59,432 bases of DNA from the NCBI GenBank assembly GCA_964352225.1, contig CAYGRM010000004.1, forward strand, positions 1 to 59,432, in the 5' to 3' direction. Of the stretch, positions 2,238-56,329 are shown one piece after another (positions within the stretch are counted from its first letter, which is position 1; each line of letters opens with the position of its first letter). The notes beneath the pieces were generated by a model, which was given only the letters and a program-made list of their open reading frames with translations, had not been told where the DNA came from and made no database searches. Position numbers and translations under genes: made by a program. The DNA is from an uncultured Saprospiraceae bacterium (GTDB taxonomy: Bacteria > Bacteroidota > Bacteroidia > Chitinophagales > Saprospiraceae).

Positions 2238-2754
2238 AACCTTAAGTTGTTTTAATTAATTCACTAAATAGGTCTTTGTCAAAGAATTGTAAAAATAGCA
2301 AAAACCTCGATCAAAATCTTTTTCGCAAAGTTAAAATTGACTGTTAAGGTGTGTTAAAGTAAGGTATATGGAAGTAGTTTTACTTAACTTTTAAAGAAAA
2401 AATTAAAAATGTAGCAGAATTATAAAAACAAAAAAGGCCACTCAAATGAATAAGTGACCTTTTTTTGTTGACCCTACAGGTGAATTATCGAACCAATTAT
2501 ATGAAGATTTTCGAAAAATTTATGAATTACGGGACTTTGTAAAGGTAGTTCCGTTTAATTCAAAACAGGATCCCGCATCAAAATCTGAATGACTTGAAGA
2601 ACTAACTCCGCCAACAAAGTTTTCTCTATAACCATTAAAATATTTTTCTGTGATATTTTTTGGAAGCCTCAATAGAAACTAAAAATGAACCTCTAGACTC
2701 AAACGGCTCTTCTTAATCTAGTCAATGATTAGGTTAAAGATAACCTAAACTCTA

Positions 2755-3127: not shown

Positions 3128-3435
3128 GGAAGATTTTCTTTTTTTAAAATCATCTAACAAAAATAAACATATACATTTATAAAAATTTTATTAATTTTAC
3201 TCTCCGCATATAAAAACTTCCCTAAATCGTTCACTAAAACTCTAGAAGATTTACTAATTTTGATTCGTTTGTTTAAGATGAAATAAATGGATCAGAGTGG
3301 TTCTCTTGAAAATTTGAAAGTGAATCCTACAGTATTTGTTTTCTAAGTTAATCTGAAATTTTACTAACAAGAGATACAGTTTGTTCTTAGACTGATAATT
3401 AAATGTTTATTTACTCCAAAACCAAAAAAACAATA

Positions 3436-21904: not shown

Positions 21905-22840
21905 TTAATCATTCACCATTAACTCCACATCATTTATTTTATCCAACTCGAGAACTGTTCCTCTCTCATCATCGGGACGAAACATCATTTTAAATTTAGC
22001 ATTCCAAATAATTTCATCACAAGTATAAGATGTATTTGAATAAATCATTTGATTGTAAGATTCATCATAACCTTCCAACATCACTAGAAACTCAACATTC
22101 ATCTTTTTCAAATTATCCTCTTCACTAGAATAAAATGGACTATTATGATTCAATGGATGAACAATCGTCCAACTCAATGGAAAAAGAAAAACTCGGTTAC
22201 GTTCTAATTTTAATGAAGCATATTTTCTAATTTCTCTTCCATCAATTTCTTCATGCCACGTTGCACTAATTTTTGCTTCCAAATTCATAATCTTATTATC
22301 TCTCGTATTCGCGATTCTAATCATAAATGCTTTTCCGTCTTCAAAGGGAGCAATGACTGCATGCTTGCTATAAATAATCTGAGCCTTAGGCCTTGTGAAT
22401 CGTGAAAACAATAAACCTGTGGCAACTGCTGCTGAAAGTAAACCTACCAGAGCTTCCAATGAAGCAATCCAATTAGCAGTCATTCCCACCGGACTCATCG
22501 CTCCATAACCAACCGTGGTAAAAGTTTGAACGCTAAAAAAAAATGTCTGACTAAAATTTTCCCAAAGACTTCCTGATTCCATTCCACTAAATGATTCCAC
22601 TCCAATTCGTAAATATACCATTGCGAAAATACTATTCACGAATATATAATATAAAACTACATGCATAAAAAAACCTATCCATGAAGATTCCGTCAACTGA
22701 TGATAAAGTGTCCAATTTGAATATCCCGTTCGCTCAACATTTAGGCTTCCATCTTTATTAATGAATCTTTTTTTAGAATACACTCTCGAGCCAAATCCTA
22801 AATCTTCTAGTGTCGTATCCTTCTTCTTTTTCTTTGCCAT
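21905..22840 (-). CDS. inward-rectifier-type potassium channel (KirBac-like)
   Basis: 311 aa. Two TM helices flank the pore helix and selectivity filter TTVGYG. The C-terminal cytoplasmic beta-rich domain is typical of the Kir family. Confidence 0.8.
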   Translation of the reverse strand: MAKKKKKDTTLEDLGFGSRVYSKKRFINKDGSLNVERTGYSNWTLYHQLTESSWIGFFMHVVLYYIFVNSIFAMVYLRIGVESFSGMESGSLWENFSQTFFFSVQTFTTVGYGAMSPVGMTANWIASLEALVGLLSAAVATGLLFSRFTRPKAQIIYSKHAVIAPFEDGKAFMIRIANTRDNKIMNLEAKISATWHEEIDGREIRKYASLKLERNRVFLFPLSWTIVHPLNHNSPFYSSEEDNLKKMNVEFLVMLEGYDESYNQMIYSNTSYTCDEIIWNAKFKMMFRPDDERGTVLELDKINDVELMVND

Positions 22841-22967: not shown

Positions 22968-25310
22968 TTATATACTTCTTTTGATTACTTTTCTTTTTCG
23001 GCCTCTGAAACTTAAAACAATAAAACAACTCAACAATACACCAACTGCTACCCCTATCCGTAAATACAAATCTTGTTGTGCTTTAATGATACTTTGTAAG
23101 TAAAATGGATTCTTATCATTTGGCGTTCCATATCCTCGAACAATTTCCCAATTTTCCATATCTGAGTTATCTAAATGAGGTAACAAAAGACTCATAGTAA
23201 ATACCGAATCTAAAGGAACCAGGTGGTATCCAGTACTATCTACCGAAGCGCCTTCATCGGTGTACAAACCTAGTCGTTCCTTTTTCTTTTTAATTCCAAA
23301 ACCTAAATTACCGACAATAGGCATTTTGTAATCTGGAAAAGTCTTTCGAAAGGCTAAGGTATCTTCACAAATAATGAGATAAGATTTCGGATTCAAATTC
23401 ACATTTGGAAGTTTAAATCCATTTTTAGAATCTGCAAAAATCCAGTCATTTACATTGATAATTTCCTCGCTCGCATTATAGATTTCTACCCAATCTCCTG
23501 TCTGCTTATTATTAGAACTAATCTCATTAATCATAATTTGACTCGCCAAAGGATGTTCGAATTTTTCGAAAACAGCCTTCAAGTTAGTGGTATTCCCTTT
23601 TTTTAAACTAACAATTAATTCTGGATCGTCATTCTCCGAACTCATCCCTTCCCAATGCGAAAATCGATACCCAAAGTTTGGAACTGCTCGCAAAGCAACT
23701 GGAATTCTTTCAAAATATTTACCTTCAAAAATTTCATTATCAACTTTTACATTTTCATTTAACACCACGTAACCTCCTCTTTGAGATTCTACCTGAAGAT
23801 TTACTATGGCACCTGTATTGAATTTGCCCATCAAATGCATCCGTGCATAATTCGGTCTTTCTTGCCCAAATTTTTTCATCACCTTCAATTCATACTCCCA
23901 CTTTTTTCTGCTCAATTTCCAGCGCTTTAGATGCTTATCAATTTCAGGAACCAAGATACTTATGTGTTCATCTAACTTCGCTTCTACATTCCTCGTTTCA
24001 AATGAAGTATTTAATGCATCACAAAATCGATTGATAAATTTCTTTTCAAACTCTTCATTGTTTAATAATTTTCTCAAAATAAAAGTACTCCACTCTGGAT
24101 TTGGCCAAGCTGGACCATCCTCTTTAGTATGAAAAGCAAGACTATTATTTTTATATGCTTCTTCATCATGTAACCCAAATCCCCAATCAGTATCATACAA
24201 AATCCATCTCCACTTTCCGCTAGAAGTTTGCGGTCGCCAATATTTTATATTACCTCCTGCATCTTGGTTATCGAAAAAGATCTGAGCAATCTGATAATCA
24301 ATGAAGTTTTCAACCTCCATTAATGAATTAACATAGGCATAATTTGCAGGAACACTCAAGTCATTTTCTCTCATGAATTTGAGCATCTTCTGATAATGAA
24401 TAGCACTTCCTCTTTTTAGGTTCATGCGGTGCTCCATCAGGTCTAGACTATCTTTATCGACATCCGTATGCTCTTGCAAATAGAACCGATTTACTTTTTC
24501 TCGAATATTATAAATTCCCCAATATTCTCCATTAATATAAACATGAGAAGGACGAGAATCCTGAATTTCTAAGTCCCAATCCTCTACCAAACTCGTCATA
24601 AATTTATCTCGCAAATGAGATTTCCCCCAATCACTTCCTGAGTTTCGAAGAACTAAATATTTATGTTTTTTAGGTGTTCCTTTTCCAAAAATTTTATGCT
24701 TGATTCGTTTTTTTCCATACTTATCTCGAGCGACTAATACTATTGACTTTTGGGGAAACAATCGACTCATTCCTCCAAACAATCGAAATCCAGAATTACT
24801 TCGATAAACGCAAGTTCCATCTGTTTCAAAAATTTCACAATTGATTTTCACTTCTTTTCGACTCCAAAAATTAGCTCCCAATTTAGCATAAGATGAATCT
24901 GCATCTGGCCCATCGATAAATAATCCATTCTCTTCATCAAATAAAATTCTAGGTGGAACCAACATCGACACTACTGGAAAAGTAGAAGTTTCTTCATCAA
25001 TAAAAAATGTATGCCCTTTAATATTACTCTTCCGTCTACCTTTTCGAGCAATCGCACGAATGGCTGTAGTAGATTTTATGACGATAGGTTTATCGTAAAC
25101 ATTTGAACGGCGAGTTGGCTTCGAGCCATCTGTGGTGTAGTATATTCGAGCTCCTGGAGAACGTAATTCCAAGATGACATAATCAGTATAAAATCCTCCT
25201 TTGGTAGAGAATTCCAGCTCCAAAGTTTTCGCTTTAACCGAAGTATTTTGAGAAAATCCATTCAGCTGGAATAATCCCACAAGAAGTAGTATGAGTAATT
25301 TTTTTCGCAA
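22968..25310 (-). CDS. CotH kinase-family protein with N-terminal chitobiase/hexosaminidase-C-like domain, lamin-tail domain and C-terminal TM anchor
   Basis: 780 aa. Signal peptide. GARIYYTTDGSKPT motif. CotH-like core (LRNSGSDW..INGEYWGIYNIREK). LTD-like INEISSNN..GDWVEIYN. Hydrophobic helix near the C-terminus. Confidence 0.75.
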   Translation of the reverse strand: MRKKLLILLLVGLFQLNGFSQNTSVKAKTLELEFSTKGGFYTDYVILELRSPGARIYYTTDGSKPTRRSNVYDKPIVIKSTTAIRAIARKGRRKSNIKGHTFFIDEETSTFPVVSMLVPPRILFDEENGLFIDGPDADSSYAKLGANFWSRKEVKINCEIFETDGTCVYRSNSGFRLFGGMSRLFPQKSIVLVARDKYGKKRIKHKIFGKGTPKKHKYLVLRNSGSDWGKSHLRDKFMTSLVEDWDLEIQDSRPSHVYINGEYWGIYNIREKVNRFYLQEHTDVDKDSLDLMEHRMNLKRGSAIHYQKMLKFMRENDLSVPANYAYVNSLMEVENFIDYQIAQIFFDNQDAGGNIKYWRPQTSSGKWRWILYDTDWGFGLHDEEAYKNNSLAFHTKEDGPAWPNPEWSTFILRKLLNNEEFEKKFINRFCDALNTSFETRNVEAKLDEHISILVPEIDKHLKRWKLSRKKWEYELKVMKKFGQERPNYARMHLMGKFNTGAIVNLQVESQRGGYVVLNENVKVDNEIFEGKYFERIPVALRAVPNFGYRFSHWEGMSSENDDPELIVSLKKGNTTNLKAVFEKFEHPLASQIMINEISSNNKQTGDWVEIYNASEEIINVNDWIFADSKNGFKLPNVNLNPKSYLIICEDTLAFRKTFPDYKMPIVGNLGFGIKKKKERLGLYTDEGASVDSTGYHLVPLDSVFTMSLLLPHLDNSDMENWEIVRGYGTPNDKNPFYLQSIIKAQQDLYLRIGVAVGVLLSCFIVLSFRGRKRKVIKRSI

Positions 25311-36564: not shown

Positions 36565-37122
36565 TTGAAGAATCAAGTAAAGCGAATTTTGGGAGTCGAT
36601 CCAGGAACTAATTACTTAGGGTATGCGGTAATTGAGACTAAGAAAAATAAAATTAGTTTGTTGACTATTGGGGTAGTATCGATGAAGCACCTTGGGTCTC
36701 ACCAATTAAAGTTGAAAAAAATTTTTGAACGATTACAAGAGATTATTCGAGGATACAACCCTGATCACATGGCTGTGGAAGCTCCCTTTTATGGGAAAAA
36801 TGTACAATCCATGTTGAAGTTAGGAAGGGCACAGGGCGTTGCCATTGCCGCTGCAATTACGATGGATGTGGAAATGACGGAGTATGCTCCAAAGAAAATC
36901 AAGCAATCTGTAACTGGAAATGGAAATGCCTCAAAAGAGCAAGTTGCTGCAATGCTTGTCAATATATTAGATCAAAAATTAGATACAGAATATTTAGATT
37001 CGACTGATGCTTTAGCGGCAGCTATCTGTCATCATTACCAATCAAGCAGTATTTTGGGTGGAGGAAAAAAACATAGCGGCTGGGCTAGTTTTATTAAAGA
37101 CAATCCCAATCGGATTAAATAA
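36565..37122 (+). CDS. ruvC: crossover junction endodeoxyribonuclease RuvC (TTG start)
   Basis: 185 aa. ILGVDPGTNYLGYAVIE catalytic-Asp region, and DSTDALAAAICH near the C-terminus. Confidence 0.9.
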   Translation: MKNQVKRILGVDPGTNYLGYAVIETKKNKISLLTIGVVSMKHLGSHQLKLKKIFERLQEIIRGYNPDHMAVEAPFYGKNVQSMLKLGRAQGVAIAAAITMDVEMTEYAPKKIKQSVTGNGNASKEQVAAMLVNILDQKLDTEYLDSTDALAAAICHHYQSSSILGGGKKHSGWASFIKDNPNRIK

Positions 37123-37146
37123 TTTGATCTAGCCTAGAATAAAAAA

Positions 37147-37168
37147 AGCAGAACTTAATAGTTCTGCT
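37147..37168. terminator. bidirectional terminator between convergent ruvC and the HIT gene
   Basis: agcagaac-ttaata-gttctgct flanked by A7 and T7 runs. Confidence 0.8.
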
Positions 37169-37176
37169 TTTTTTAT

Positions 37177-37563
37177 TTATTCAAAATTCTCTCTAATTCT
37201 TTCGGCAATTTTAGCTAATTCGTCCTGTGAGTATTTTGGTTTTTTCTTTGGAAAAAAATGCTTCACAATTGGAATCAAATGAACATGAGCATGAGGCACT
37301 TCTAAACCTTCGACTAATATTCCTACTCGTTTACATGGAACTGCTTTTTCGACAGCATGTGCTACTTTTTTTGAAAAAGCCATTAGGCCTTCGTAAGTTT
37401 TACTATCCAAATCAAAAATATAATCTACTTCCTTTTTAGGAATTACTAAGGTGTGTCCCTCTTCCCATGGATTAATATCTAAAAAGGCAAAGTAGTTTTC
37501 TGACTCTGCAATTTTATGACATGGAATTTCACCGTTAATTATTTTAGTAAAAATACTTGCCAT
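37177..37563 (-). CDS. HIT-family (histidine triad) nucleotide hydrolase
   Basis: 128 aa. Histidine triad HAHVHLIP. Confidence 0.85.
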   Translation of the reverse strand: MASIFTKIINGEIPCHKIAESENYFAFLDINPWEEGHTLVIPKKEVDYIFDLDSKTYEGLMAFSKKVAHAVEKAVPCKRVGILVEGLEVPHAHVHLIPIVKHFFPKKKPKYSQDELAKIAERIRENFE

Positions 37564-38036: not shown

Positions 38037-38139
38037 AATAAATTTTTAAATTAATTAAACGCTTCGCGAGATTTAGGTGAGAAAAGAACAACATGAGTTT
38101 GTTTAAATGAGTTCATTCCCGCGCTTGATAAATAAAAAA

Positions 38140-38176
38140 CAAGAACGTTTCTATCTGGTAGATAGAAACGTTCTTG
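38140..38176 (-). terminator. rho-independent terminator at the end of the three-gene outer-membrane module
   Basis: Perfect 16-bp stem caagaacgtttctatc / gatagaaacgttcttg. The minus strand is followed by a T-run. Confidence 0.8.
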
Positions 38177-38243
38177 TGATGAACTTTGCTTAAATATAGT
38201 AAAAATCAAGCAAATAAAAAAAATATTTGAAGGATCCTATTTT

Positions 38244-39293
38244 CTAGAATCCTAATCTTACTGCTATGTTGTGCGTTCCACCCCATGGATTTGAAGTTCT
38301 GAATGCATAATCAATACCAAAAGTAGTATTTGAATTCTTACTAACTGGTACCTGAATTGATAATCCTCCAGCGATGCCAGTATAAACATTTCTTTCATCA
38401 GGTGCATCACTTTGACCTAAGTCATATTTGTATCCACCTCTCAACATGAATTTATCATTGAAAGCATATTCAATACCTGCTCCAAGTTGATCTCTTGAAA
38501 ATGAATTAGAGGTAAAATTAGATACTGCTGTAATTCTATTCTTATCTCCTAAAATAAAATCATAAGATACTCCAATATTCAGAACTGAAGGCAACTCAAA
38601 AGCTGCTGGTCTTTGCTCATAAGATAATTGGTAAGTTGAATTAGGTACACTCAATTGTTGAGATAAACCTTGTCCTCCAAAACTCATCGGAGAGCCAACG
38701 TTTCTTAATGATAACCCTAATTTAAAATTATCTTGAGGTCCAGAAACATACTGCACACCTGCATCGAGTGCAAAACCAAATGCATTTAAGTCTGCTGTAC
38801 TTTCAGAAATTGCTCGGAACAAAATTCCTACAGAAATTTTATTTTCAAAAATATGTCCGTAGCCAAGTCCTAAATTGAAAAAGTTAGGAGAAAACGTACC
38901 ACCTGTTCCTTCTGGAGAATTTTCAGTTGTGATTGGAATATCTCCAAAATCAAGCGCCATCAGACTTAATCCAAATGTTCCATTTTTTCCAACTTTTTGA
39001 GCTAGTCCAAATGCATTCATTTTAATATCAGTCCCTTCCAAATATCTAGCATGGCTAATAAGAACTTCTGTTCCTTTTACTCTCGAAAGACCTGCAACAT
39101 TTAACCGCATTGCTTCTACTCCACTTACAAACGATGTACTCATAGTATGAAGTCCTGCTGAGCGTGCCCATGGATTCATTAAAAGTTCGTAAGCACCTGC
39201 TTCTCCTTGTCGATCAGGATTTCCTGCAAAAGCTGTTTGGCACATGGTAATTGACAAAACAGCTATAAATAGGATGTAAATAATTTTATTCAT
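38244..39293 (-). CDS. PorV/PorQ (FadL-like) family outer-membrane barrel protein
   Basis: 349 aa. Signal peptide, N-terminal ..GEAGAYELLMNPWARSAGLH.. segment resembling PorV-family openings, beta-barrel pattern, terminal ..VRLGF. Confidence 0.6.
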   Translation of the reverse strand: MNKIIYILFIAVLSITMCQTAFAGNPDRQGEAGAYELLMNPWARSAGLHTMSTSFVSGVEAMRLNVAGLSRVKGTEVLISHARYLEGTDIKMNAFGLAQKVGKNGTFGLSLMALDFGDIPITTENSPEGTGGTFSPNFFNLGLGYGHIFENKISVGILFRAISESTADLNAFGFALDAGVQYVSGPQDNFKLGLSLRNVGSPMSFGGQGLSQQLSVPNSTYQLSYEQRPAAFELPSVLNIGVSYDFILGDKNRITAVSNFTSNSFSRDQLGAGIEYAFNDKFMLRGGYKYDLGQSDAPDERNVYTGIAGGLSIQVPVSKNSNTTFGIDYAFRTSNPWGGTHNIAVRLGF

Positions 39294-39327
39294 AATTAAA
39301 TTATAGTCTAATTTTTTTGAAATAAAA

Positions 39328-39365
39328 ACAAGGAAAATTGGTTCGCTAAAACCAACCTTCCTTGT
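39328..39365 (-). terminator. intercistronic hairpin or partial terminator
   Basis: acaaggaa..ttggtt / aaccaa..ttccttgt. A T-run follows on the minus strand, between the 1360-aa gene and the PorV-like gene. Confidence 0.5.
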
Positions 39366-39374
39366 AATTTAATT

Positions 39375-42300
39375 TTATAATCCTGATGGATCGAATTTTC
39401 TAGCTACACCAAACCACTTAATCACTCGTTCACCCAATCCGTCGGCATCTATATGGATTAGATACACTCCACTTGCTACAGGAATACCTTTGTTATTTTT
39501 CAGATCCCATTCTAGTGCCGGAGATACCTGAGTAGTATTAATTCCTGAACTTGGTCTATCCAATGTAACATTAACTCCTAATTCATCTCTCTCGTATTGT
39601 CTAATAAATTTCCCATCTAATGAATAAATCGTAACTGTACTCTTCGCAGGAAGGTTAGTTATTTTTACGGTATTAGCGAATTGAGAAATTTCATAAGCAG
39701 AGTATCCATAGTATGGATTAGGAACTACATTAATGTTATCTAATGCAGTTTCAGCAATTGATCCTGCTACTACATCGGTAGCAGCTTGTCCTTCCAATTT
39801 GAATCTATAAGTTGGATAACCTTGGAAGTCATTAGTTCCTACTTCCACTTGATAAGGATTATCTACTCTCAGTTGTATTCTTAAATCGGTAGGAATTAAT
39901 CCATCACCAATAGAGTTTAAACTAGATCCTTCATTTAAGACAGGCATAGTAGTCCAACTAATTTCTGCTAATGCTTTACGTACATCATTGACACCACCTT
40001 CTAATCTAGTTTTCAATTCAGCACACTCATCATACTTTTGTTTAGTTACATAAATAAAGTGCTGACCTCCCATAATAATATTATATGGGAATGGTGCTCC
40101 ATTAAATGCTATTTCACTAGTAGGATTCCAGATCATATCTCTACCATTAGCTTCGTAGTTCTCTGCAGCAAATCCTTCTGGGTAATATGTTGAATTTTCT
40201 CCAAAGAAAATATTCAAACGCTCACCTGTTTCTTGGTCAATTGCATATCCAGGGAAATACCCCATACCTGTAGTTGAAGGATCAGAATCATCTTCGACAC
40301 CTTCTTTATTTACTGATTGACCTTGTCGTAATTCAATATTTCTTGCATTACCTTCCGTTTCGAGTTCAAGTCCTCCATTTGCTATTGGATTATAATATTC
40401 AGGTGCTGCAGTTTCTACTACGATACATCTACTCCAAAGATCTTTATTACTAGTGAATACAATATCAACATTGTTTAAAGTTTCAAGTTTATTTTGACCT
40501 CTAACAACACCTGAAATAGCAGGCTGTCTTAACGCTGGAGTAAACCAATATTGACCAACAGTTTGATCTGGATCTGCAAAGACATTTAATATATAAGGAG
40601 TAAATGCTCCAAATGAACTAAATGCTTGATCTGGATCTAAAAGAGTTGCATTAGGATCTACTTCATTTCCTTCCTCTGTTTGTATATAGTTGAAAGGCGT
40701 AGGTCCATCAGCTATATAAGAAAACCAATTATCACTTGCAGCATAGATTTCTTCATATCCAATTGTACCGTTTGACTCATCTGCTTTATCTCCCACATCA
40801 TCAGTCTGGCCAACTTTGATTGAAATTCCATATTCTTTCAAAATCTGTTCATTCAATCTTTCAATTGTTTGTTCAGAATAAATTGGAGCAGTAGGATCTG
40901 AAAGGTTAGTCAATTGCCAATACATTTCAGAATCAAGATCATCATTTCCATCATTATTTCCATTAAGATCAGTAAACGTTAATTGGAATTCACCATCTAC
41001 TACTTCTAGTGGGTTAATAATTTTAACATTGATTGGAGATCTTCCTGGTTGATATACCAATTCACCAGTAGATGATCCTGCAAGAATTTCCGCTTCTGTT
41101 TCAGGAGAAATGGCTACATTATTTTCACCAACTCCAACACCATCAATTCTAGTAACGATTGGTCCGTCTCCATAACCAGAATTTAAGTTTTTATAAACGA
41201 TTGGTCGCGGAATAACGGTGTATGATGTTGCATTACCATCCCCAATATTTCTACGTCCTTCGAGGTATGGTCTTCTTTGTCCCACTACTAATCCTGGATC
41301 AAATTGCTCGTAATTATTATAAGCATAAGCAACTACCGTAAAGTAATATTTCTTATGGTTAATCAATTTATTATTTCCATCAGCAAATTGATCTGTGGTT
41401 ATACTAAATGTATGAGAAATACCATTTTCTAAAACACCTTCATTTTCTAATGTAGGAATCCAAATTGGTTTGGTTGGATCACTTGGATTAAATTCTGAAG
41501 ACCAGTTATATATTCTTGATATTCCATTTTTGATATCTACAGAAGTTACCAATCGTGCTTTATCAGGATTCGTATTAAACTCTGCAGGACTTACATTTGG
41601 CTCAGTTAATTGGTAAATTCTATATCCTTCAAATTTGTAAGATCTAACTTCCTCTGGTAGTAGAGTCGGAGCTTGTAAATCAATCTCAGAATAACCCTCT
41701 CCAGAATTATTAGTAGATAATTCATCGCCATTAGTTAAGATCATAACAATCTCTTTATTTAATTCAACGAAATCTACATCTGGTGCATCTGGCCCATCCG
41801 TGATATCAAAACAGTTATCAAATAAAGCCTGCGCAATATCATCTGCTGATAATAATGGTGAAATATTTGGACATGAGTGAGCTACGTCTGGTACCCAAAC
41901 AACTCCAACAATCAACTCATTAACAGCTTGAGAAATCAAGGTAAATGGTCCTGATGCTTGAAGTGTTCTTCTATCTCCAAAAGGCAAATTCTCTGTACAC
42001 ATTGACCATCCTGCTGGATCATCCGGAGCATCTGGGAAAGCATATTTCACAATCTCTCCACCTGAGTTAAATCCATCTCCTCCAAAAGTTAATGGAGCAC
42101 CATTAGGCCACGAACCTGAAATCAAGTTATAAAATTCTGCTGGTAAAGAAGGGTCAGTAGTTCCTGGAGAAGGATTACCTACACCTGCATTATTATAATA
42201 TGTGAAAGATGACATTCCTAAAGGAACTAGTACATCTGCAGGTTCTCCATTTTCTGGATTTCTTAAAATTGAATCCACACCATACACTTTAGGTGCATTA

Positions 42301-43457
42301 GGTCCTCTAAAGTAATCAATTCCTAATAATGGAATCTTATCACAATAAGTAGCAACACCTCCAGGACATTGACATCCAGTTTGTCCATCTAATGCATCTT
42401 CATTATATACATATGCTAAACTTCTTGTTGTATCACTTCCAATATAATCATCTGTATAACATCCTAAATCTGGATCTACCCAAACAGCAAAGAAGCAACT
42501 GTCAATCGGATCTTGTGCACGATTAATCAATTTATATCTTTGGAAAGTCATATCATTGATCTCATCATTAGTTCTCCATGCAAATGACTGAACTTGAACT
42601 TCCATTCTAATTGCATCTCCACCTGAAGCTGTGTGGTTTCCACCAGCATCATTATAAATCCAAAAATACATTTCATCTGCATACTGTGCTTGCTTGATCG
42701 ATTCAACTTCACAGTTAGTAATGTCAATTCTTGGAAAATCTCCTAAGTGTGGTTCATATACATCAATCTCGTTTGGAATATTATCCGTTGGATCATCATT
42801 ATCAAAAAAGAACCCAAACCCTTGAGAACTTGTAGACTCATCTGGTAAATCAAACCCATGCACATCAAAGAAAAAATCATTTCCTCTGGCAGGCCATCCT
42901 AAAACATCAGCAGGAATTTCTCCTGGCTCAAGTTCAGTTCTTCCTTCCGCTTTTGCGATTTCCCAATTTTTGATATGAAGCGCAATATTCTCACCTAACA
43001 CTTTAAAGTGTTTATTCCAATTAGCACAAGTATCAAATCCAACTGTACCTACATCTGTAAGTGGTCCAGGGAAAAAATCATTACTTGTTCCACTTCGGTA
43101 ATCTACCGCCGCCATTTTCAAAACTGGATTATCCGGCAAACCGGTAAACCCACCAATCCAAACGGCTCCAGCAAAAATAGAAGATACCTCTGGCAAACCT
43201 GGTTCTACTTTTGGAACTACATATTGTCCATCATTCAAATCCCACCAGATATCTCCACCATTTAATAACATAGCTCTTACATTATTAATGGATTGAATAA
43301 CTTTGGATGTACCTTGGGCACAGTCCATTCTTAATGTCGCTGTGGTATTAGAAGTATTAGCATTTTTCCCATGCACATTTGGATTGATGTGCGCATAAGA
43401 AAAGGACCATATTCCTAACAACAGAGCCACAGAAAGTAAATATTTTAAATTACGCAT
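39375..43457 (-). CDS. 1360-aa secreted protein of unknown function with T9SS-CTD-like C-terminal beta-sandwich
   Basis: Signal peptide. No catalytic motif recognised by eye. Cys cluster GCQCPGGVATYC. C-terminus VVPNPY..VKITNLP..TIYSLDGK..WDLKN..GVYLIHI resembles type-A sorting or FlgD-Ig-like domains. Confidence 0.7.
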   Translation of the reverse strand: MRNLKYLLSVALLLGIWSFSYAHINPNVHGKNANTSNTTATLRMDCAQGTSKVIQSINNVRAMLLNGGDIWWDLNDGQYVVPKVEPGLPEVSSIFAGAVWIGGFTGLPDNPVLKMAAVDYRSGTSNDFFPGPLTDVGTVGFDTCANWNKHFKVLGENIALHIKNWEIAKAEGRTELEPGEIPADVLGWPARGNDFFFDVHGFDLPDESTSSQGFGFFFDNDDPTDNIPNEIDVYEPHLGDFPRIDITNCEVESIKQAQYADEMYFWIYNDAGGNHTASGGDAIRMEVQVQSFAWRTNDEINDMTFQRYKLINRAQDPIDSCFFAVWVDPDLGCYTDDYIGSDTTRSLAYVYNEDALDGQTGCQCPGGVATYCDKIPLLGIDYFRGPNAPKVYGVDSILRNPENGEPADVLVPLGMSSFTYYNNAGVGNPSPGTTDPSLPAEFYNLISGSWPNGAPLTFGGDGFNSGGEIVKYAFPDAPDDPAGWSMCTENLPFGDRRTLQASGPFTLISQAVNELIVGVVWVPDVAHSCPNISPLLSADDIAQALFDNCFDITDGPDAPDVDFVELNKEIVMILTNGDELSTNNSGEGYSEIDLQAPTLLPEEVRSYKFEGYRIYQLTEPNVSPAEFNTNPDKARLVTSVDIKNGISRIYNWSSEFNPSDPTKPIWIPTLENEGVLENGISHTFSITTDQFADGNNKLINHKKYYFTVVAYAYNNYEQFDPGLVVGQRRPYLEGRRNIGDGNATSYTVIPRPIVYKNLNSGYGDGPIVTRIDGVGVGENNVAISPETEAEILAGSSTGELVYQPGRSPINVKIINPLEVVDGEFQLTFTDLNGNNDGNDDLDSEMYWQLTNLSDPTAPIYSEQTIERLNEQILKEYGISIKVGQTDDVGDKADESNGTIGYEEIYAASDNWFSYIADGPTPFNYIQTEEGNEVDPNATLLDPDQAFSSFGAFTPYILNVFADPDQTVGQYWFTPALRQPAISGVVRGQNKLETLNNVDIVFTSNKDLWSRCIVVETAAPEYYNPIANGGLELETEGNARNIELRQGQSVNKEGVEDDSDPSTTGMGYFPGYAIDQETGERLNIFFGENSTYYPEGFAAENYEANGRDMIWNPTSEIAFNGAPFPYNIIMGGQHFIYVTKQKYDECAELKTRLEGGVNDVRKALAEISWTTMPVLNEGSSLNSIGDGLIPTDLRIQLRVDNPYQVEVGTNDFQGYPTYRFKLEGQAATDVVAGSIAETALDNINVVPNPYYGYSAYEISQFANTVKITNLPAKSTVTIYSLDGKFIRQYERDELGVNVTLDRPSSGINTTQVSPALEWDLKNNKGIPVASGVYLIHIDADGLGERVIKWFGVARKFDPSGL

Positions 43458-43559
43458 GACTATATTTTTTTACGTTTATAATTCTTTGTTAATTATTGAG
43501 ATAAGTTCTGTAGTCGATTAATTTTATTTAATCAACTACAGAACTGTTTTATCTTTTTA

Positions 43560-46500
43560 TTAAAAGTTTATATTTGCTCCTATGTAGATTCTTCTTGGCA
43601 ATGTAAAGAATCCAGGATTCAACATTCTCCAAGTGTAAGAAGGTAAATAGAATTGTTCTAATCCATCAGCAACTACACCTTGCAATACAGATTCTCCAAT
43701 TGGAGAAGTAAGGAATCCATCATCAGTAGGAGATCCAGATGCAGAGTAAACACCTAATAAGTTTCTTCTATCTAATAAGTTTTGAACTCTTACGTATACA
43801 TTTAAGTCAATAGGATTTTTACCCGCTTCTTGTGGAGAATAAAGTCTAACCGTTTTATCAACTCTAATATTAACGGTGAAGTTCCAAGGTAATCTTGCCC
43901 CATTTAATGATCCAACTGTACCGTCACCACCGAATGATGAAGGAACTAATTTGGCAGTATATGGTCTTCCTGATACAGCAATTACTTGAAGGTTCGCTCC
44001 AGCATTTGCTAAGATATCTTTTCCAAAAAGAACCGGTCCATTGTAATTTCTTCCAGAGTCATATCTGTAATCCATTGCAATATTAAATCGATGTCTTTCA
44101 TCAAATGATAATGGGAAAAGGTTTCTAATATTTCCTCTACTTCCTAAGTTTCTTGAGGACTCAGAATCAGATCCAGTTCCATCTGCAAATTGAAGCGTAT
44201 AAGCTGCTAACAAAGTAACATTCTTAGTTCTTCTCAAATCATACTGAAAAGTAAAACCTTTTACCGTTCCAAAATCAAGGTTATCAAAACCTGTGTATGA
44301 TGTAATATTCAAATCAGAAGGTAAAAACAAGAAATCTCTAATCTGAATCATATCTCTCATCTCTTTGTAATAAGCAGATACTTTTAATGCAGAAGAATTC
44401 GTCAATTTTTGTTGGAAACCAACTTCATAATCAATTGTTCTTTCTGGTCTCAAGTTTGGATTTGATTCTGGAGTTCTTCCAGCATCTCCAAAGTAGAAAT
44501 AATTCAAAGCTGTTGCGATATTATTTCCTGGAGGTCGTTGTACCAAGATATCGTAGTGAGCAAAGAAGTTTGCTACATCTGAGATAGGGAATGAAAATGC
44601 CAAACGAGGCATTACATTAATCTGCGGTTCATAATCTTCAAATCCATCATTTGGATCATATGTATTTTCTTTAATCCAGTTACCATTCGCAAGAGGGTTA
44701 CTATATTGAACGTATCTTGGAGCTGTTCCGAAAATAACGTTACCTCCATTAGATGCACTTCCATCAGCAAAAAACCACTCATCCCCATTTCGGAAAGCTT
44801 TAACTGTATTATCGTCTGGTCCACTTACATATACTTTATAATCATCCCCAACATTAAGAGGTCTAACTTGGTTAGAATTAGCATCTTCAGAGAAGAATTG
44901 CTCTGCATCTTTAATATCGTATAATGAAAGTGGATCTTTTAATACTTTCGTATTTGCATCATATCTATCTACACGTAAACCTAATCTAAAGATGATATCT
45001 TTATAGGTAAATTTATCTTGAATATATGCTGCAGTATAGTTTGGTCGGAAAGGAGCTACCGGAAAATCTCGGATGGTATTTCCAAATCTTGTAACTCTTG
45101 TTGAGCTGAAAAAATCGTCAAATGTTACATCTGAACCAATTCTTGCACCCGTATGATCATATCCATAAAATGAAGCTAATCCTAAGTCGGTTAACTCAAT
45201 CGGAGCAAACATATCAATCGAAAGTTGATCCGGAGTAAGTTCATCTACATTTACAAATGTATTTAAATCATCTCCTGTGATCTCTCTGATTGATCGATAG
45301 AATAAAGATGCCTCATCATTTTGAATTAATGTCTGATAAATATCTACCTCTACTGGTCCAAATGGAGTATTTTCCGTTTGAGTTCCAACAATAATATTCG
45401 TATCAACACCAATAATGTGTCGGTTATCATTAAAGTCCGCAAGTTCCCAAAGTCTTCTAGGAGATACTGAATAAGCTCTCTCCTCTCGTTGTTCATACAA
45501 TAACCCAATCTCGATAGAGTGACGACCTTTGTCTGTTCCTCCAGGGTGTAAGTCAAATGAACTAGATACGTTTGCAGTAATCAAAGTTCCTTGACTTTTT
45601 TGGTATTGATTGAATACGGTTCCTACATTTGTATGAAATTCAAAAATAGAATTTGAGTTACTAAATGTTTGACCATTTTGTGCAAACAAATCATCTTCTG
45701 TTTGGAAATCTGTAACTCCATTATTATAAGCTGCTAACACAGGATTGATATCTCGATTCAGAGTATATCCAATTGTATTTTCACTAAATCCTCCATGTGT
45801 TAGAGTTAATCCTGTTCCATCAAAAGCGAAATCTATGGTAGGTACATATTCTTTTTCTACAGTACCAATATATCCATAGTCGAATAATCGGTCTTCATGT
45901 CTTGAATCTTGTCTCAAGAAATCGTTATACTCATATCCTGCTTGAATAATGTATTCAAAATTGGATACGATTGAACTTTTAGATGCATTAGCATTAGAAC
46001 CTCCAAGCCTGTGTCTAAATCTCAAATTTCCTCTATATCTATTATAACTATCGTTTGGATTATTCTGAGTATTAAATGTTGTCCACCCACCTGGAGTGAA
46101 GTAATCTTTCCCCGTAAAGTATGTTCCTGTAAATGATACATCAATGGCATCGCTTAATCTTGCATCCAACTTAAGTGTTCCATTAAATTGTTGTAAAGAT
46201 TCGTTTGGTCGAGTTTTTAATAACTCTACTTCATCGGCAACCACTCGTTGTCCGGTTGGAGTTCCAAAACCATCTAAGATTGGATTAGCTTGTAATCTTG
46301 CCAAAACTTCAGGCTTTACAGTATATACACCCGTAGCAGTTGGACTATTATCTTCTCGGTGAGTATAACGTCCTGAAAAACGGAATCCTATAATAGAGGT
46401 TTTATTTCCATCTTCATTTGTTTTCCTTAAAATAGGTCCACTCAAGCTCACTCCAACTAAGCTGTGACCGAATGCATCTAAATATTGAGAAGTTTCTGAA

Positions 46501-47198
46501 TCCACTCCTCCTGAAAATTTGGCAGAAGGCCCTTTGGTTGTAATGGAGATAATACCTCCTGTTACATCTCCATATTTTGCTCCGATACCTCCTGTGATCA
46601 CTTGCATTTGCTCGATCTCAGATTCTGGAAGTAAGTTTCCTCTTACCCGAATACCATCAATATAGTAATCCGTTGCATTTGAACGGGATCCCTTGATCGT
46701 AACCGCTCCTCCTTCATCAGAAGAACTCGCTCCTGCTGTAGCCGCTGCCACGGCATTAATATTACGCGTAGGTAAATTTCGGATTTGCTCACTTGTTACA
46801 GTTGTACCCGTTGATGTTTCATCTTGTTTGATCAGAGGGACTTTATATCCCGTCACTACGACCTCGTCGATTACGTTTCCTGCTCCTACTGAAAGTTGAA
46901 CATCTACTCTAGTAGCTTGTCCAGCATTTGCAACTACACCTGTAATTTGCTGCGTAGGATATCCTGTATAAGATACCTCTATGTCGTAAGTTCCAGGATC
47001 GACTCTGATACTATAATTTCCATCGATATCCGTAGTTTCCCCTTGAATGAAAACTCCATTTTTCGATATAATTATGTTAGCGGCAATCATATCTTCGCCA
47101 GTATCTTTATCAGATATCTTTCCAGTAATACTGGTTTGTGCGAAGGTGAATGAGGCTACAAATAGTAATGAAAGTGTAAGTAAAAAATTTCGTACCAT
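43560..47198 (-). CDS. TonB-dependent-receptor-like outer-membrane protein (carboxypeptidase-regulatory-like N-domain, plug, very large barrel)
   Basis: 1212 aa. Signal peptide, ITGKISD..DIDGNYSI..GTYDIEVSYTGY domain, plug-like ..VTIKGSRSNATDYYIDGIRV.. and ..GGIISITTKGP, terminal ..YIGANINF. No SusD-like gene is adjacent. Confidence 0.8.
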   Translation of the reverse strand: MVRNFLLTLSLLFVASFTFAQTSITGKISDKDTGEDMIAANIIISKNGVFIQGETTDIDGNYSIRVDPGTYDIEVSYTGYPTQQITGVVANAGQATRVDVQLSVGAGNVIDEVVVTGYKVPLIKQDETSTGTTVTSEQIRNLPTRNINAVAAATAGASSSDEGGAVTIKGSRSNATDYYIDGIRVRGNLLPESEIEQMQVITGGIGAKYGDVTGGIISITTKGPSAKFSGGVDSETSQYLDAFGHSLVGVSLSGPILRKTNEDGNKTSIIGFRFSGRYTHREDNSPTATGVYTVKPEVLARLQANPILDGFGTPTGQRVVADEVELLKTRPNESLQQFNGTLKLDARLSDAIDVSFTGTYFTGKDYFTPGGWTTFNTQNNPNDSYNRYRGNLRFRHRLGGSNANASKSSIVSNFEYIIQAGYEYNDFLRQDSRHEDRLFDYGYIGTVEKEYVPTIDFAFDGTGLTLTHGGFSENTIGYTLNRDINPVLAAYNNGVTDFQTEDDLFAQNGQTFSNSNSIFEFHTNVGTVFNQYQKSQGTLITANVSSSFDLHPGGTDKGRHSIEIGLLYEQREERAYSVSPRRLWELADFNDNRHIIGVDTNIIVGTQTENTPFGPVEVDIYQTLIQNDEASLFYRSIREITGDDLNTFVNVDELTPDQLSIDMFAPIELTDLGLASFYGYDHTGARIGSDVTFDDFFSSTRVTRFGNTIRDFPVAPFRPNYTAAYIQDKFTYKDIIFRLGLRVDRYDANTKVLKDPLSLYDIKDAEQFFSEDANSNQVRPLNVGDDYKVYVSGPDDNTVKAFRNGDEWFFADGSASNGGNVIFGTAPRYVQYSNPLANGNWIKENTYDPNDGFEDYEPQINVMPRLAFSFPISDVANFFAHYDILVQRPPGNNIATALNYFYFGDAGRTPESNPNLRPERTIDYEVGFQQKLTNSSALKVSAYYKEMRDMIQIRDFLFLPSDLNITSYTGFDNLDFGTVKGFTFQYDLRRTKNVTLLAAYTLQFADGTGSDSESSRNLGSRGNIRNLFPLSFDERHRFNIAMDYRYDSGRNYNGPVLFGKDILANAGANLQVIAVSGRPYTAKLVPSSFGGDGTVGSLNGARLPWNFTVNIRVDKTVRLYSPQEAGKNPIDLNVYVRVQNLLDRRNLLGVYSASGSPTDDGFLTSPIGESVLQGVVADGLEQFYLPSYTWRMLNPGFFTLPRRIYIGANINF

Positions 47199-47668
47199 AA
47201 GTAATTCTTTTTAAAATGTTATTGGCGAAAAAATTGGCTTTTCGTGATTAATGGAAAAATAGAACTATCCATTTCTACATTAGCCCACAATGTTAATAAA
47301 TTACGTCTCATTTCTGAAAAAAATAGAAATCCCTTGTCAAGGGAATGACATAAAGATTCTATTAAAAGTCAGCTTTCTACTTGAAAGCGGTGCAGTAGTT
47401 TCAAATATATTCTTTCCAAAATATATTTTTTTTCTATTTCACTTAAAGTATGGTTTTCTTTTTCTATGTTTTTATTTTAATTGAAAAGCTCCTGTTTTAA
47501 AGCTTTTTCCCTCTTTTAATGTAATCTATTATCTTTTCTCTTATTCTCCTTACCAGACTTGTTTTATAAGTCAGGTTTCAATTTTCATTTTTTAGGTTCT
47601 AGCCTTGAGGATACTTAGAAGTTTCCTTGTTGATAAAGATCTTTCTTGTCAGCTGAGATCAAATAGAT

Positions 47669-52885: not shown

Positions 52886-52906
52886 TAACAAACTTAAAAA
52901 TTGAAA

Positions 52907-54421
52907 ATGAATACAAAAGATTTAGATAATCAACAACAGTTGTGGGGACACCCCGTGGGACTTTACGTATTGTTTTTTACAGAAATGTGGGAACGATTTT
53001 CATACTACGGAATGCGGGCACTTTTAGTTTTATATATGACTGCAACTGCGGCTCATGAAAATGGAATAGGTTTGGCCTGGACAGAAAAAGAAGCTATTGC
53101 TTTATATGGATGGTACACCATGTTAGTTTATGTGGCATCCATTCCAGGTGGAATTATTGCAGATAAATTAATTGGGCAAAAGAAAGCTGTCCTCTACGGA
53201 GCAATCATTCTCTGTATGGGACATGGAATATTAGCTATAGATGCTGTTTGGGCTTATTATACCGGTTTAGGATTAGTTATTACGGGAGTAGGTTTATTGA
53301 AACCAAATATTTCAACAATGGTTGGTGGACTCTACAAGCCTGGAGATATTAGAAGAGATAAAGGATTTAATATTTTTTATATCGGTATTAACCTAGGTTC
53401 GTTATTAGCCACGATGACTGTTGGGTTAGTGGTTGCGGAATGGGGATGGCATGCTGGCTTTGGTTTAGCAGGTCTTGCAATGTTAGCAGGGTTAGTGGTA
53501 TATATTTGGGGGCAAAAACACTTGACTCATGTGGGTAATCTTTTACCTGAAGAAGAAAGAAAAACAGAAGCATCTGTTCCTCAACTTTTTTCCAATTTGA
53601 TGAAAACGACCACCCAATTATATATAACTATTGGTTTACTATTAGTTTCTGCTTATGGTTGGTATAAATTAGACTGGGCTTATGGCTTATTATTTTTATT
53701 TATAACTGGTGTTGTTGCGATGCTAATGATGATCTACAGAGATCTTGAATCTCAAATTTTTAAAGATCGATTCTTAGTTTTATTGCTTTCGTTTATAATG
53801 GTAATTATATTTTGGGGCGCTTTTGAGCAAGCAGGTGGTTTGATGAACTTATATACTGACACCAAAACTGATAGAGTTTTATTTGGCTGGACAGTTCCGA
53901 CTGTGATGTTCCAAAGTTTAAATGCTGGATTTATCATTTTATTTGCAACAGGAGTAGCGAGTATTTGGGCAAAACGAAAATTAAAAAACAAAGAAGCCTC
54001 TTCCATATTCAAAATGGCAGTTGGGATTATTATCATGGGACTCGGATTTGTATTCATGGTTTTTGCTGCCATGGAATTTGAAAAAAATGGATCTTCAAGT
54101 ATGATTTGGTTGGTGATGGCTTATCTTTTCCATACCATTGGAGAGTTATGCTTATCACCAGTAGCACTTTCATTTATCACCAAATTGGCTCCTGTAAAAT
54201 ATGCTTCCTTAATGATGGGAGTTTATTTTGCCGCATCTGGTTTAGGAAACAAAGTAGCTGGAATTGTTGGAGAAGCGGCAAGTGATTTTGGAGAGTATAC
54301 TATTTTCCTAGGAATTACTTTCTTTACAGTTGCGATAGGTTTATTATTTATTGCTATTTTAAAACCTTTAAAAAGATTGATTCACGGAGCTGAAGATATC
54401 AAAGTAGAGACAGGACACTAA
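52907..54421 (+). CDS. proton-dependent oligopeptide transporter (POT/PTR2 family)
   Basis: FTEMWERFSYYGMRALLVLY signature, GGIIADK motif, about 12-14 TM helices. ATG 52907 is preferred over TTG 52901. Confidence 0.9.
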   Translation: MNTKDLDNQQQLWGHPVGLYVLFFTEMWERFSYYGMRALLVLYMTATAAHENGIGLAWTEKEAIALYGWYTMLVYVASIPGGIIADKLIGQKKAVLYGAIILCMGHGILAIDAVWAYYTGLGLVITGVGLLKPNISTMVGGLYKPGDIRRDKGFNIFYIGINLGSLLATMTVGLVVAEWGWHAGFGLAGLAMLAGLVVYIWGQKHLTHVGNLLPEEERKTEASVPQLFSNLMKTTTQLYITIGLLLVSAYGWYKLDWAYGLLFLFITGVVAMLMMIYRDLESQIFKDRFLVLLLSFIMVIIFWGAFEQAGGLMNLYTDTKTDRVLFGWTVPTVMFQSLNAGFIILFATGVASIWAKRKLKNKEASSIFKMAVGIIIMGLGFVFMVFAAMEFEKNGSSSMIWLVMAYLFHTIGELCLSPVALSFITKLAPVKYASLMMGVYFAASGLGNKVAGIVGEAASDFGEYTIFLGITFFTVAIGLLFIAILKPLKRLIHGAEDIKVETGH

Positions 54422-54595: not shown

Positions 54596-56329
54596 ATGGC
54601 AGACAAGTTTGGAAACTCCCTAGTTAAGGATCAATTAATCCTTGACCATCCAGCAAGTTTATTTGTATTGTTTTTCACCGAGATGTGGGAACGATTTTCA
54701 TATTATGGTATGAGAGCTTTATTAGTTCTCTTCCTTACAGCTTCCCTTATGGATGGCGGTTATGGATGGGAAAGAAGTAATGCATTAGAGCTTTATGCCC
54801 TTTACACAGGATTAGTATATCTGACTCCATTATTGGGAGGAATTATAGCTGATAAAATCATGGGATATAGAAAAGCTGTTGTTTTAGGTGCATTTATTAT
54901 GGCAGTTGGGCATGGATGTATGGCTATTGAAGCTATTCCCGCTTTCTTTTATGCAGGTTTAACTTGTTTGATTATTGGAAATGGTTTATTCAAACCAAAT
55001 ATTTCATCCATGGTTGGGCAACTCTATAAAGATGATGAATCTAAAAAAGATTCTGCTTATACTATCTTTTACATGGGAATTAATGCCGGTGCCTTTTTAG
55101 GGATTTTGCTTTGTGGATATATTGGTGAAAATATTGGCTGGAGTTATGGCTTTGGGTTGGCAGGTATTTTCATGCTGTTAGGAATGTTACAATTTTGGTT
55201 TGCTCAAGATATTTTTGGAGACATTGGATTAACACCAAAAAAAGAAACTGTTGAAGAGGATAAATCTTCTACCAATGATGTTTCCACAAATGGAAGTTCA
55301 AGACTTGGTATGTGGGCAGCTATCGGTTTAGTAATAGCTGCAATTATCTATTTTTTAATTCCAAAAGATGCTGCCGCTCCACTTCTAAGTGTTGTTAATA
55401 AAAATTATATCCCTCCTTTCTTATTTGGTACAGTTACAGCCATTGTAGGATTTATTGTAACTGATCCTTCCTTAACTAAAGTAGAAAAAGACCGAGTTTG
55501 GGTTATCATTATTTTAACTTTCTTCACTATTTTCTTTTGGTGGGCATTTGAGCAAGCTGGTGGTTCTATGACAATCTTTGCAAATGATTACACCAATAGA
55601 GACTTAATAGGGAGTGGTGCAATGATATTTAAAGTCGTCAATACAGTTCTAACTGTAGGTTCACTTGGGGTAATTACTTGGGTTTTATTTAAATTATTCA
55701 ATGTTACTTTCAGTCAGATAAGTACTTCAAATATTATTCTCGGACTTAGTTTTGTAATTATTTGGGGAATTGCAATTTGGATGTTAGGCAGAGAGTTTCA
55801 AGATACAAAAGCTCAAGTTCCTGCTTCTTGGTTCTCTATTCTTAACTCCTTCTTTATCATTACAATGGCTCCAGCTGTTTCTAAGTTTTGGGAAAAAGGA
55901 ATTATCACCTCAGGCCCAATCAAATTTGCTATGGGCTTAATGATTTTAGGGCTAGGATTTGGTATTTTAGCTTGGGGAGCTAATGGTATTCCACAGGGTG
56001 CAAAAACAGCTTCAGTTAGTATGATTTGGTTAGTTCTTGCATACTTTTTCCATACAACAGGTGAATTATGTGTATCTCCAGTTGGGCTTTCTTATGTAAG
56101 TAAATTAGCTCCTGTTCGATTGATAGGATTAATGTTTGGAGTTTGGTTTATCGCCAACTTTATTGCTAACTGGGCAGGTGGAATGACAGGTAGTTTTATT
56201 GATCAAATTGTTGAATCTACAAATATGTCTACCTTCTTCTTAATTTTTACTCTTATCCCAATTGGTGCAGGTGTTGTGCTAATTTTGATAAAAGGATTTA
56301 TGAAGAAGATGATGCATGGTATAGATTAA
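54596..56329 (+). CDS. proton-dependent oligopeptide transporter (POT/PTR2 family), longer paralogue
   Basis: 577 aa with the same FTEMWERFSYYGMRALLVL signature. It carries an extra central loop and helices. Confidence 0.9.
   Translation: MADKFGNSLVKDQLILDHPASLFVLFFTEMWERFSYYGMRALLVLFLTASLMDGGYGWERSNALELYALYTGLVYLTPLLGGIIADKIMGYRKAVVLGAFIMAVGHGCMAIEAIPAFFYAGLTCLIIGNGLFKPNISSMVGQLYKDDESKKDSAYTIFYMGINAGAFLGILLCGYIGENIGWSYGFGLAGIFMLLGMLQFWFAQDIFGDIGLTPKKETVEEDKSSTNDVSTNGSSRLGMWAAIGLVIAAIIYFLIPKDAAAPLLSVVNKNYIPPFLFGTVTAIVGFIVTDPSLTKVEKDRVWVIIILTFFTIFFWWAFEQAGGSMTIFANDYTNRDLIGSGAMIFKVVNTVLTVGSLGVITWVLFKLFNVTFSQISTSNIILGLSFVIIWGIAIWMLGREFQDTKAQVPASWFSILNSFFIITMAPAVSKFWEKGIITSGPIKFAMGLMILGLGFGILAWGANGIPQGAKTASVSMIWLVLAYFFHTTGELCVSPVGLSYVSKLAPVRLIGLMFGVWFIANFIANWAGGMTGSFIDQIVESTNMSTFFLIFTLIPIGAGVVLILIKGFMKKMMHGID

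Follow-up and report, generated by a model that had tools for sequence, protein, structure and literature searches.

Several described systems place a protein at the cell surface with the help of an outer-membrane barrel. In the T9SS (type IX secretion system), the C-terminal sorting domains (CTDs) of PorZ and PorU stay on the barrels PorQ and PorV (PMC10202324). Type B cargo proteins are anchored by cognate barrels through an intact CTD, and the genes of the two are often neighbors (PMC9143113). In addition, SusD is not the only surface partner with which TonB-dependent transporters (TBDTs) are stably complexed (PMC10404256). Here we describe a locus of three neighboring minus-strand outer-membrane genes, which we name g1, g2 and g3, from an uncultured Saprospiraceae bacterium. 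The window, i.e., the whole stretch of DNA that was analyzed, comprises 59,432 nt of contig CAYGRM010000004.1 (GCA_964352225.1), and positions are those of its forward strand. From sequence comparison, we suggest that the triad is one outer-membrane unit that has been kept across Saprospiraceae and other Chitinophagales, and that the g2 protein is most likely held on the g3 barrel by its CTD. The three genes are:

43560-47198, minus strand: g1, open reading frame (ORF) of 1212 residues, TonB-dependent transporter
39375-43457, minus strand: g2, ORF of 1360 residues, secreted protein of an uncharacterized family
38244-39293, minus strand: g3, ORF of 349 residues, outer-membrane barrel of the PorV/PorQ family

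The gaps between the genes are 102 bp (g1-g2) and 81 bp (g2-g3). The original prediction for this DNA had described three co-directional genes with these gaps, a hairpin in each and a closing terminator, and all of these are present, the terminator at 38139-38177. A gene for a 2-hydroxyacid/phosphoglycerate dehydrogenase (PGDH) is located upstream of g1, and genes for GreA and a HIT protein are located downstream of g3. We scanned relatives of g2 in one genome per species; these genomes are metagenome-assembled genomes (MAGs) with uncertain labels. The 422 relatives are nearly all from Saprospiraceae, Lewinellaceae, Haliscomenobacter and unclassified Chitinophagales MAGs. The order PGDH-g1-g2-g3-GreA-HIT is found in almost every locus with enough flanking sequence, down to 36-39% identity, so that the triad is indeed syntenic in related genomes. 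The exceptions (loci of relatives carry L numbers) are L037, where no g3 was found within 10 kb downstream, and L064, where only g2 copies were found. Adjacent pairs number 54 for g1-g2 and 66 for g2-g3, with gaps that vary between a slight overlap and several hundred bp. In distant lineages the gaps are near zero, some of the genes overlapping or being less than 40 bp apart. With the most distant orthologue as the query, a second large clade was retrieved from uncultured Chitinophagales, and it has the same order, including the housekeeping flanks (L084 and L085).

In some genomes, the single g1 and the single g3 are accompanied by one or two further g2 paralogues (L081, 15298-23311; L016, 2933-11034; L039, 1623-5678; L072, 8782-12840), and most of these extra copies lack the terminal tail WFG..R..D...L that is described below. 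More distant g2 paralogues stand alone elsewhere. Two single loci deserve mention. In L085, from a distant member of the Chitinophagales, a 640-residue protein with an SprB repeat and a type A CTD is encoded between PGDH and g1 (1320-3242), so ordinary type A cargo exists in triad-bearing lineages. Locus L078 (contig JAKLJF010000186.1) has the order g2-g3-GreA-HIT at 46-66% identity in a MAG binned as 'Thermoanaerobaculia bacterium' (Acidobacteriota), and this is most likely a binning error rather than a real occurrence outside the Bacteroidota.

Judged from its sequence and its model, g1 is a true TBDT, since an N-terminal extension, a TonB box and a plug are combined with a barrel of the TBDT fold. 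A signal peptide is also present, and the barrel is large. The N-terminal features are:

46890-47132, minus strand: N-terminal extension of g1 (residues 23-103), CarboxypepD_reg, PF13620, E = 1e-14
46845-46868, minus strand: candidate TonB box DEVVVTGY of g1 (residues 111-118), between the N-terminal extension and the plug
46554-46826, minus strand: plug of g1 (residues 125-215), PF07715, 39.5 bits against a cutoff of 23.9, E = 8.7e-10

In profile searches, the N-terminal extension matches the N-domains of a SusC homologue (PDB 9hfj, 'SusC homolog') and of a Bacteroides TBDT (6ytc, 'TonB-dependent receptor'), and the plug matches that of Cir (E = 1.5e-12). The motif DEVVVTGY, which by its form we take to be a SusC-type TonB box, has the consensus LDEVVVTEYKVPLIEQD in 39 orthologues, where Y118, P121, L122 and D126 are invariant. 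The AlphaFold2 (AF2) model of g1 has a mean predicted local distance difference test (pLDDT) score of 75 and a predicted template modeling (pTM) score of 0.72, with low confidence in the plug region. A Foldseek search with this model gave 196 PDB matches at E ≤ 1e-3. The top 50 listed are all TBDTs, such as FoxA, FptA, PhuR, PfeA and FhuA, with E values from 1e-19 to 1e-15 (best 4.7e-19), and FptA (1xkw) is in third place. Thus, on the model, g1 has the barrel fold of the TBDTs, a class with 22-strand barrels.

As originally predicted, g1 pairs a carboxypeptidase-regulatory-like N-domain and a plug with the absence of a SusD partner: no SusD-family Pfam match was found in the gene downstream of it. 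The SusC/RagA signature models TIGR04056 and TIGR04057 (NCBIfam, E ≤ 0.01) did not match either, so g1 falls outside the SusC/RagA subfamily and shares with it only the SusC-type N-terminal extension. SusC/SusD, RagAB and BtuB-BtuG resemble the triad in that a TBDT with a SusC-type extension and a TonB box is followed by the gene of a large surface partner, with paralogues of the partner nearby. However, g2 is neither a lipoprotein nor SusD-like, and its delivery would fall to the T9SS and its retention to a separate barrel. Moreover, g1 is without the SusC/RagA signature, and the triad locus is without regulator or enzyme genes.

The architecture of g1 also recalls Oar of Myxococcus xanthus, which acts in PopC secretion. 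Oar is a large TBDT with a carboxypeptidase-regulatory-like N-domain, a plug and a barrel, it has no SusD, and it is needed for a protein to be secreted (PMC6434023). This likeness, together with the unusual size of g1 (1212 residues), raises the alternative that g1 works outward, i.e., that it exports or surface-exposes g2 with g3 as the receiver. However, the T9SS CTD already accounts for the export of g2, passage of a folded protein of ~150 kDa through a plugged 22-strand barrel is implausible, and no Oar-type barrel family is among the Pfam matches of g1. Oar comes from another phylum and is without a T9SS or a PorV-type partner, whereas g2 carries its own T9SS signal. We regard an outward role for g1 as very improbable.

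By inspection, the g2 protein begins with a hydrophobic signal peptide of the Sec type, MRNLKYLLSVALLLGIWSFSYA/H (it ends SYA/H), without a lipobox cysteine. The signal peptide is followed by a body of ~1200 residues without a recognizable domain and by a T9SS-type C-terminus, as the original prediction had it. No Pfam match was found for g2, and no match to PDB sequences with either the single sequence or a profile. Among 36 family members, no Pfam family is shared by more than two, and those few matches are weak and unrelated (best E = 0.0067). The AF2 model has a pLDDT of 63, with the N-terminal half mostly below 50. Foldseek gave no significant fold match to it (best E = 0.09), though the model is weak and a fold may have been missed.

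Four identities for g2 were considered and rejected. As PorU, it matches only the CTD part of NF033707 (positions ~992-1077), with no match to Pfam Peptidase_C25 in the 36 family members and no gingipain fold among the Foldseek matches of the weak model. As PorZ, a protein with two beta-propeller domains, it matches only positions 667-745 of NF052228, which are the CTD. As SusD or an enzyme, it has no Pfam or PDB match and no significant fold match of its weak model. The view that g2 lies outside the characterized enzyme families is therefore consistent with the Pfam, 36-member, PDB profile and fold searches. It had also been called an orphan, and this has to be corrected, since g2 is merely unannotated and has thousands of homologues. 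The superfamily comprises 6135 clusters at 50% identity with E ≤ 1e-3, and 1155 with E ≤ 1e-30. All homologues with a source name are 'hypothetical protein' (one is named only 'Secretion system C-terminal sorting domain'), and the organisms named are all MAGs.

The informative part of g2 is the C-terminus, where two features are found:

39378-39752, minus strand: T9SS sorting domain (CTD) of g2 (residues ~1236-1360, the last ~125), type A, PorZ/PorU-like
39378-39404, minus strand: terminal extension ARKFDPSGL of g2, which hardly varies in the alignment and comes after the strand (KWFGV) that is usually the last of a CTD

We scanned the CTDs of 17 family members alone against the NCBIfam models. 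The PorZ CTD was matched by all 17 (best match, 3.4e-9), TIGR04183 likewise by all 17, and the PorU CTD by 16. The CTD of g2 in the window scores 23.0 bits on TIGR04183, which equals the cutoff of 23 and is marginal, and in full length g2 matches only the PorZ CTD among the NCBIfam models. There was no match to PF18962, the Pfam type A CTD, for g2 or in the 36-member family scan, no match of g2 to TIGR04131 (type B), and no match of the CTD profile to the PDB. Conservation within g2 is highest in the CTD, with a mean identity of 0.75-0.77 versus 0.3-0.7 elsewhere. A signal that is cleaved and discarded is expected to be less conserved, and the strong conservation of the CTD points to a lasting interface more than to such a signal.

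The tail follows the pattern W[FMY]G..R..D...[LF] (WFGxxRxxDxxxL), and the copy in the window reads KWFGVARKFDPSGL. It is present in 73 of the 78 g2 copies directly upstream of g3, the other five being near-variants, and is absent from 8 of the 11 copies that are not followed by g3 (Fisher p = 2.5e-6, for counts that are not phylogenetically independent). The stand-alone g2 paralogues end as ordinary type A CTDs, without the tail. Because the CTD is strongly conserved, the tail marks the copies partnered with g3, and there are published precedents in PorU, PorZ and type B cargo, we suggest that g2 is most likely tethered to g3 via a retained and specialized CTD. A cargo with a PorV-type partner of its own had been proposed originally, either as a display unit or for nutrient capture, and a CTD of the PorZ/PorU type, which is a retained type, its high conservation and the link of the tail to adjacent g3 all speak for the pairing as such.

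On its profile matches, g3 is a barrel of the PorV/PorQ family that is neither a canonical PorV nor a canonical PorQ. It scores 135.8 bits on NF033709, the family model, against a cutoff of 90, and its distant orthologues in L077 and L080 score 129-130 bits. The scores on the two equivalog models are below their cutoffs: 68.1 bits against 250 with partial coverage for PorV (NF033710), and 79.2 bits against 220 with end-to-end coverage for PorQ (NF033711). It passes Pfam PorP_SprF (27.3 against 22.3). With a profile of g3 orthologues, the only PDB match is PorV of F. johnsoniae (6h3i_F, E = 1.8e-12), over the N-terminal 224 residues. Hence the predicted likeness to PorV stands at the level of the PorV/PorQ family and not at that of canonical PorV. 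The grouping with this family rather than with FadL is borne out as well: g3 has no Pfam match to FadL or Toluene_X (E ≤ 0.01), and no FadL chain appears in the PDB profile search (E ≤ 10). A FadL-type or BamG-type identity was considered, BamG being a barrel similar to FadL and PorV by which a surface lipoprotein is held (PMC12578637), and it is unsupported, with PorV alone as the PDB match.

The pair of g2 and g3 can be compared with two kinds of T9SS assembly. The attachment complex of P. gingivalis, i.e., PorZ-PorQ and PorU-PorV, is alike in having a type A CTD protein, with a CTD that is proposed to be retained, on a barrel of the PorV family. It differs since the body of g2 is unrelated to the propellers of PorZ and to the C25 peptidase of PorU, g3 is below both equivalog cutoffs, and here there are an extra conserved tail on the CTD, adjacent genes and a joined TBDT. 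For type B cargo, i.e., SprB-SprF and PG1035-PorP, the likeness lies in a cargo gene followed by its own small-barrel gene and in anchoring by an intact CTD (PMC9143113), and g3 does pass PorP_SprF. However, the CTD of g2 is of type A, g3 scores 135.8 bits on PorV/PorQ versus 22 on PorP, and the triad includes a TBDT and no PorE-like gene.

Since the window also holds a 2528-residue ORF (3403-10989, plus strand) that ends in a sorting domain of type B (41.5 bits on TIGR04131, whose cutoff is 35), its sequence indicates that the organism uses the T9SS. This protein is probably a giant surface adhesin, and among the ORFs scanned no PorP/SprF-like gene is directly beside it. Saprospiraceae MAGs have been reported to encode the T9SS (PMC9304909).

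The control elements around the three genes are:

43504-43545, minus strand: hairpin in the g1-g2 gap, 18-bp stem, without a T-run
39328-39365, minus strand: terminator-like hairpin in the g2-g3 gap, 17-bp stem followed by TTTTTATTT, directly 3' of the g2 stop codon
38129-38177, minus strand: intrinsic terminator that closes the module, 18-bp stem (38139-38177) followed by a T-run, TTTTTTATTT
47402-47409, minus strand: TATATTTG, which may be a -7 promoter element of the Bacteroidota type, ~200 nt upstream of g1, found by eye with low confidence

The candidate promoter element fits TAnnTTTG, the consensus of Bacteroidota promoters. The g1-g2 hairpin has a folding free energy (dG) of -26.6 kcal/mol and a z score of -8.7, and none of 200 shuffled sequences was as stable. 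It is found in the close relatives L002, L005 and L006 with an altered stem sequence and is weaker in L003; it was not found in the more distant loci compared. The g2-g3 hairpin has a z score of -6.2 relative to shuffled sequence. A stable stem recurs at the same position after the g2 stop codon in the distant loci L007, L023, L024, L033, L052 and L054. Because it recurs in these lineages despite unrelated sequences, the hairpin behind g2 appears to be kept by its position, and this suggests a conserved control of transcript ends or gene stoichiometry, i.e., attenuation or 3'-end stabilization inside the operon. No riboswitch or other known RNA was found by Rfam in the g1 leader or in the gaps, where the Rfam matches are sub-threshold chance matches to the hairpins. 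Beyond the module, a hairpin at 37092-37195 lies between the convergent HIT gene (minus strand) and a gene at 36565-37122 (plus strand). It has sub-threshold Rfam matches to small RNAs on both strands and is most likely a bidirectional terminator.

These gaps bear on the question of whether g1 belongs with the other two genes at all. It could be argued that g2, e.g., as an adhesin, a surface-layer protein or an exo-enzyme, and its anchor g3 are complete by themselves, and that g1 is an independent TBDT that merely shares the locus. There is good documentation of gene pairs of cargo and cognate barrel (PMC9143113), some stand-alone g2 paralogues have no TBDT close by, and in the window the g1-g2 hairpin and the 102-bp gap could separate transcription units. 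However, this hairpin is without a T-run, and the adjacency of g1 and g2 is conserved like that of g2 and g3. The adjacency also persists to the lowest identities, with overlapping or very short g1-g2 gaps in the distant lineages. We therefore consider it quite unlikely that g1 is an independent neighbor.

We favor, tentatively and with somewhat less than even confidence, a T9SS-assembled uptake unit in which g3 holds g2 and g2 serves g1 as a TonB-powered importer. Our proposal builds on the observed gene identities, CTD type, synteny and association of the tail with g3, and it is completed by analogy with the described systems. First, g2 would be exported by Sec and then carried across the outer membrane by the T9SS via its type A CTD. 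Unlike in ordinary cargo, the CTD would then be retained, and the CTD and tail would dock on the dedicated barrel g3. The ~1200-residue body of g2 would thus be tethered at the cell surface, as PorZ is on PorQ and PorU on PorV. There it may sit beside or over g1 as a partner for surface capture or processing, which is the role of SusD-type lipoproteins for SusC, and g1 would import the putative ligand with TonB energy. The hairpins in the two gaps probably adjust how strongly g1, g2 and g3 are expressed relative to each other. Several findings speak for an uptake unit: no hallmark of an energized importer, in sequence or in fold, is missing from g1; g2 occupies the position that susD has after susC, and there is no SusD; the linkage of g1 and g2 is as tight as that of g2 and g3; and where further copies of g2 occur, they are clustered next to one g1 and one g3.

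Several points weigh against uptake. The model of g2 is poor, and no binding or catalytic fold was recognized in it. The terminator-like hairpin after g2 could partly uncouple g3 in transcription. The locus has no regulator in the Pfam scan and no riboswitch in Rfam, and the triad is at a fixed place among housekeeping genes (PGDH, GreA and HIT) across an order; the lack of a regulator and the fixed housekeeping setting would suit a core function of the envelope better than the uptake of a specific nutrient. The known surface partners of TBDTs are lipoproteins and not T9SS cargo. Furthermore, the TBDT-like PorF is a component of the T9SS, and PorV of Cytophaga hutchinsonii is purified together with a TBDT that resembles PorF (PMC5445135, PMC8564354), so the link between g1 and g3 could be explained without import.

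The precedent of PorF, which was overlooked in the original prediction, leads to a serious rival explanation. The triad could be a lineage-specific accessory or attachment module of the T9SS and not a nutrient importer. In such a module, g1 would be a PorF-like component, g3 the PorQ/PorV-type barrel of this lineage, and g2 a surface factor akin to PorZ and PorU, with a retained CTD and with other cargo as its target, e.g., in anchoring, processing or lipopolysaccharide handling. PorF (PG0534) is annotated as a barrel of the TonB-dependent receptor type that is required for the T9SS, and its best modeling template is FptA (PMC5445135, PMC6590471), which ranks third for g1. Immunoprecipitation of PorV in C. 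hutchinsonii also brings down SprA and a TBDT with a plug and 33% identity to PorF (PMC8564354). The closest likenesses of the g2 CTD are PorZ and PorU, and g3 spans the PorQ model from end to end and scores higher there than on PorV. The locus is single, without a regulator, part of the core genome and fixed across an order.

However, outside the CTD g2 is unlike the body of PorZ or PorU by hidden Markov model searches, and also by fold, though with a weak model. Paralogues are numerous in the g2 family, and some of them stand alone and have ordinary CTDs, which is unusual for a core part of a machine. A comparison with PorF (PG0534/Fjoh_0118/CHU_1606), based on the descriptions in the literature, is similarly divided. 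Both PorF (PMC5445135, PMC8564354) and g1 are TBDT-fold proteins with a link to the T9SS and PorV, which in the case of g1 is proposed, and FptA is a top structural match of both. PorF is ~92 kDa, and the P. gingivalis protein is reportedly without a plug (PMC8564354), whereas g1 is ~135 kDa and keeps its plug and a conserved TonB box. On balance we judge an accessory role in secretion to be unlikely, though it has to be taken seriously beside the uptake unit that we favor.

The components of the triad are of kinds that are already known, i.e., a TBDT, a type A CTD cargo and a barrel of the PorV/PorQ family, and there is precedent for a gene pair of cargo and cognate barrel. In our literature search, we found no paper on a conserved operon in which a TBDT is joined by a CTD protein and by a PorV/PorQ paralogue dedicated to it, nor any on a tail-bearing CTD; a lead to 'PorV2' was an artefact of text matching. 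The triad could represent a new class of outer-membrane machine of the Bacteroidota, where a TBDT has a surface partner that is delivered by the T9SS, is not a lipoprotein, and is permanently docked by an uncleaved, tailed CTD on its own PorV/PorQ-type barrel. We hold this with more reserve, as a rather doubtful possibility.

Other genes in the window give a partial view of the organism. Two tandem peptide transporters of the POT/PTR2 family (52901-54421 and 54596-56329, plus strand) fit the peptide- and protein-degrading lifestyle with which Saprospiraceae are credited. A 780-residue protein (22968-25310, minus strand) has CotH kinase, chitobiase/Fn3-associated and lamin-tail domains and no NCBIfam name. 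A homologue of the prokaryotic inward-rectifier-type K+ channels, with IRK_C and Ion_trans_2 domains, is encoded at 21905-22840 (minus strand).

The genetic link in this operon persists throughout an entire order of bacteria that are abundant in the environment and in wastewater. If g1, g2 and g3 assemble into a single complex, the lids of transporters could come from the T9SS and be held by PorV-type barrels. In that case, the terminal tail would be a sequence rule for whether a CTD is retained or cleaved, and the unannotated g2 family, with its thousands of members, would have a first context. One complex would also give a handle on why PorF, which resembles a TonB receptor, is needed for type IX secretion. 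Should the triad prove to be a new class of machine, the shuttle family of the T9SS would be physically coupled to TonB-powered transport, and the locus would be a tractable model for the connection between PorF and PorV.

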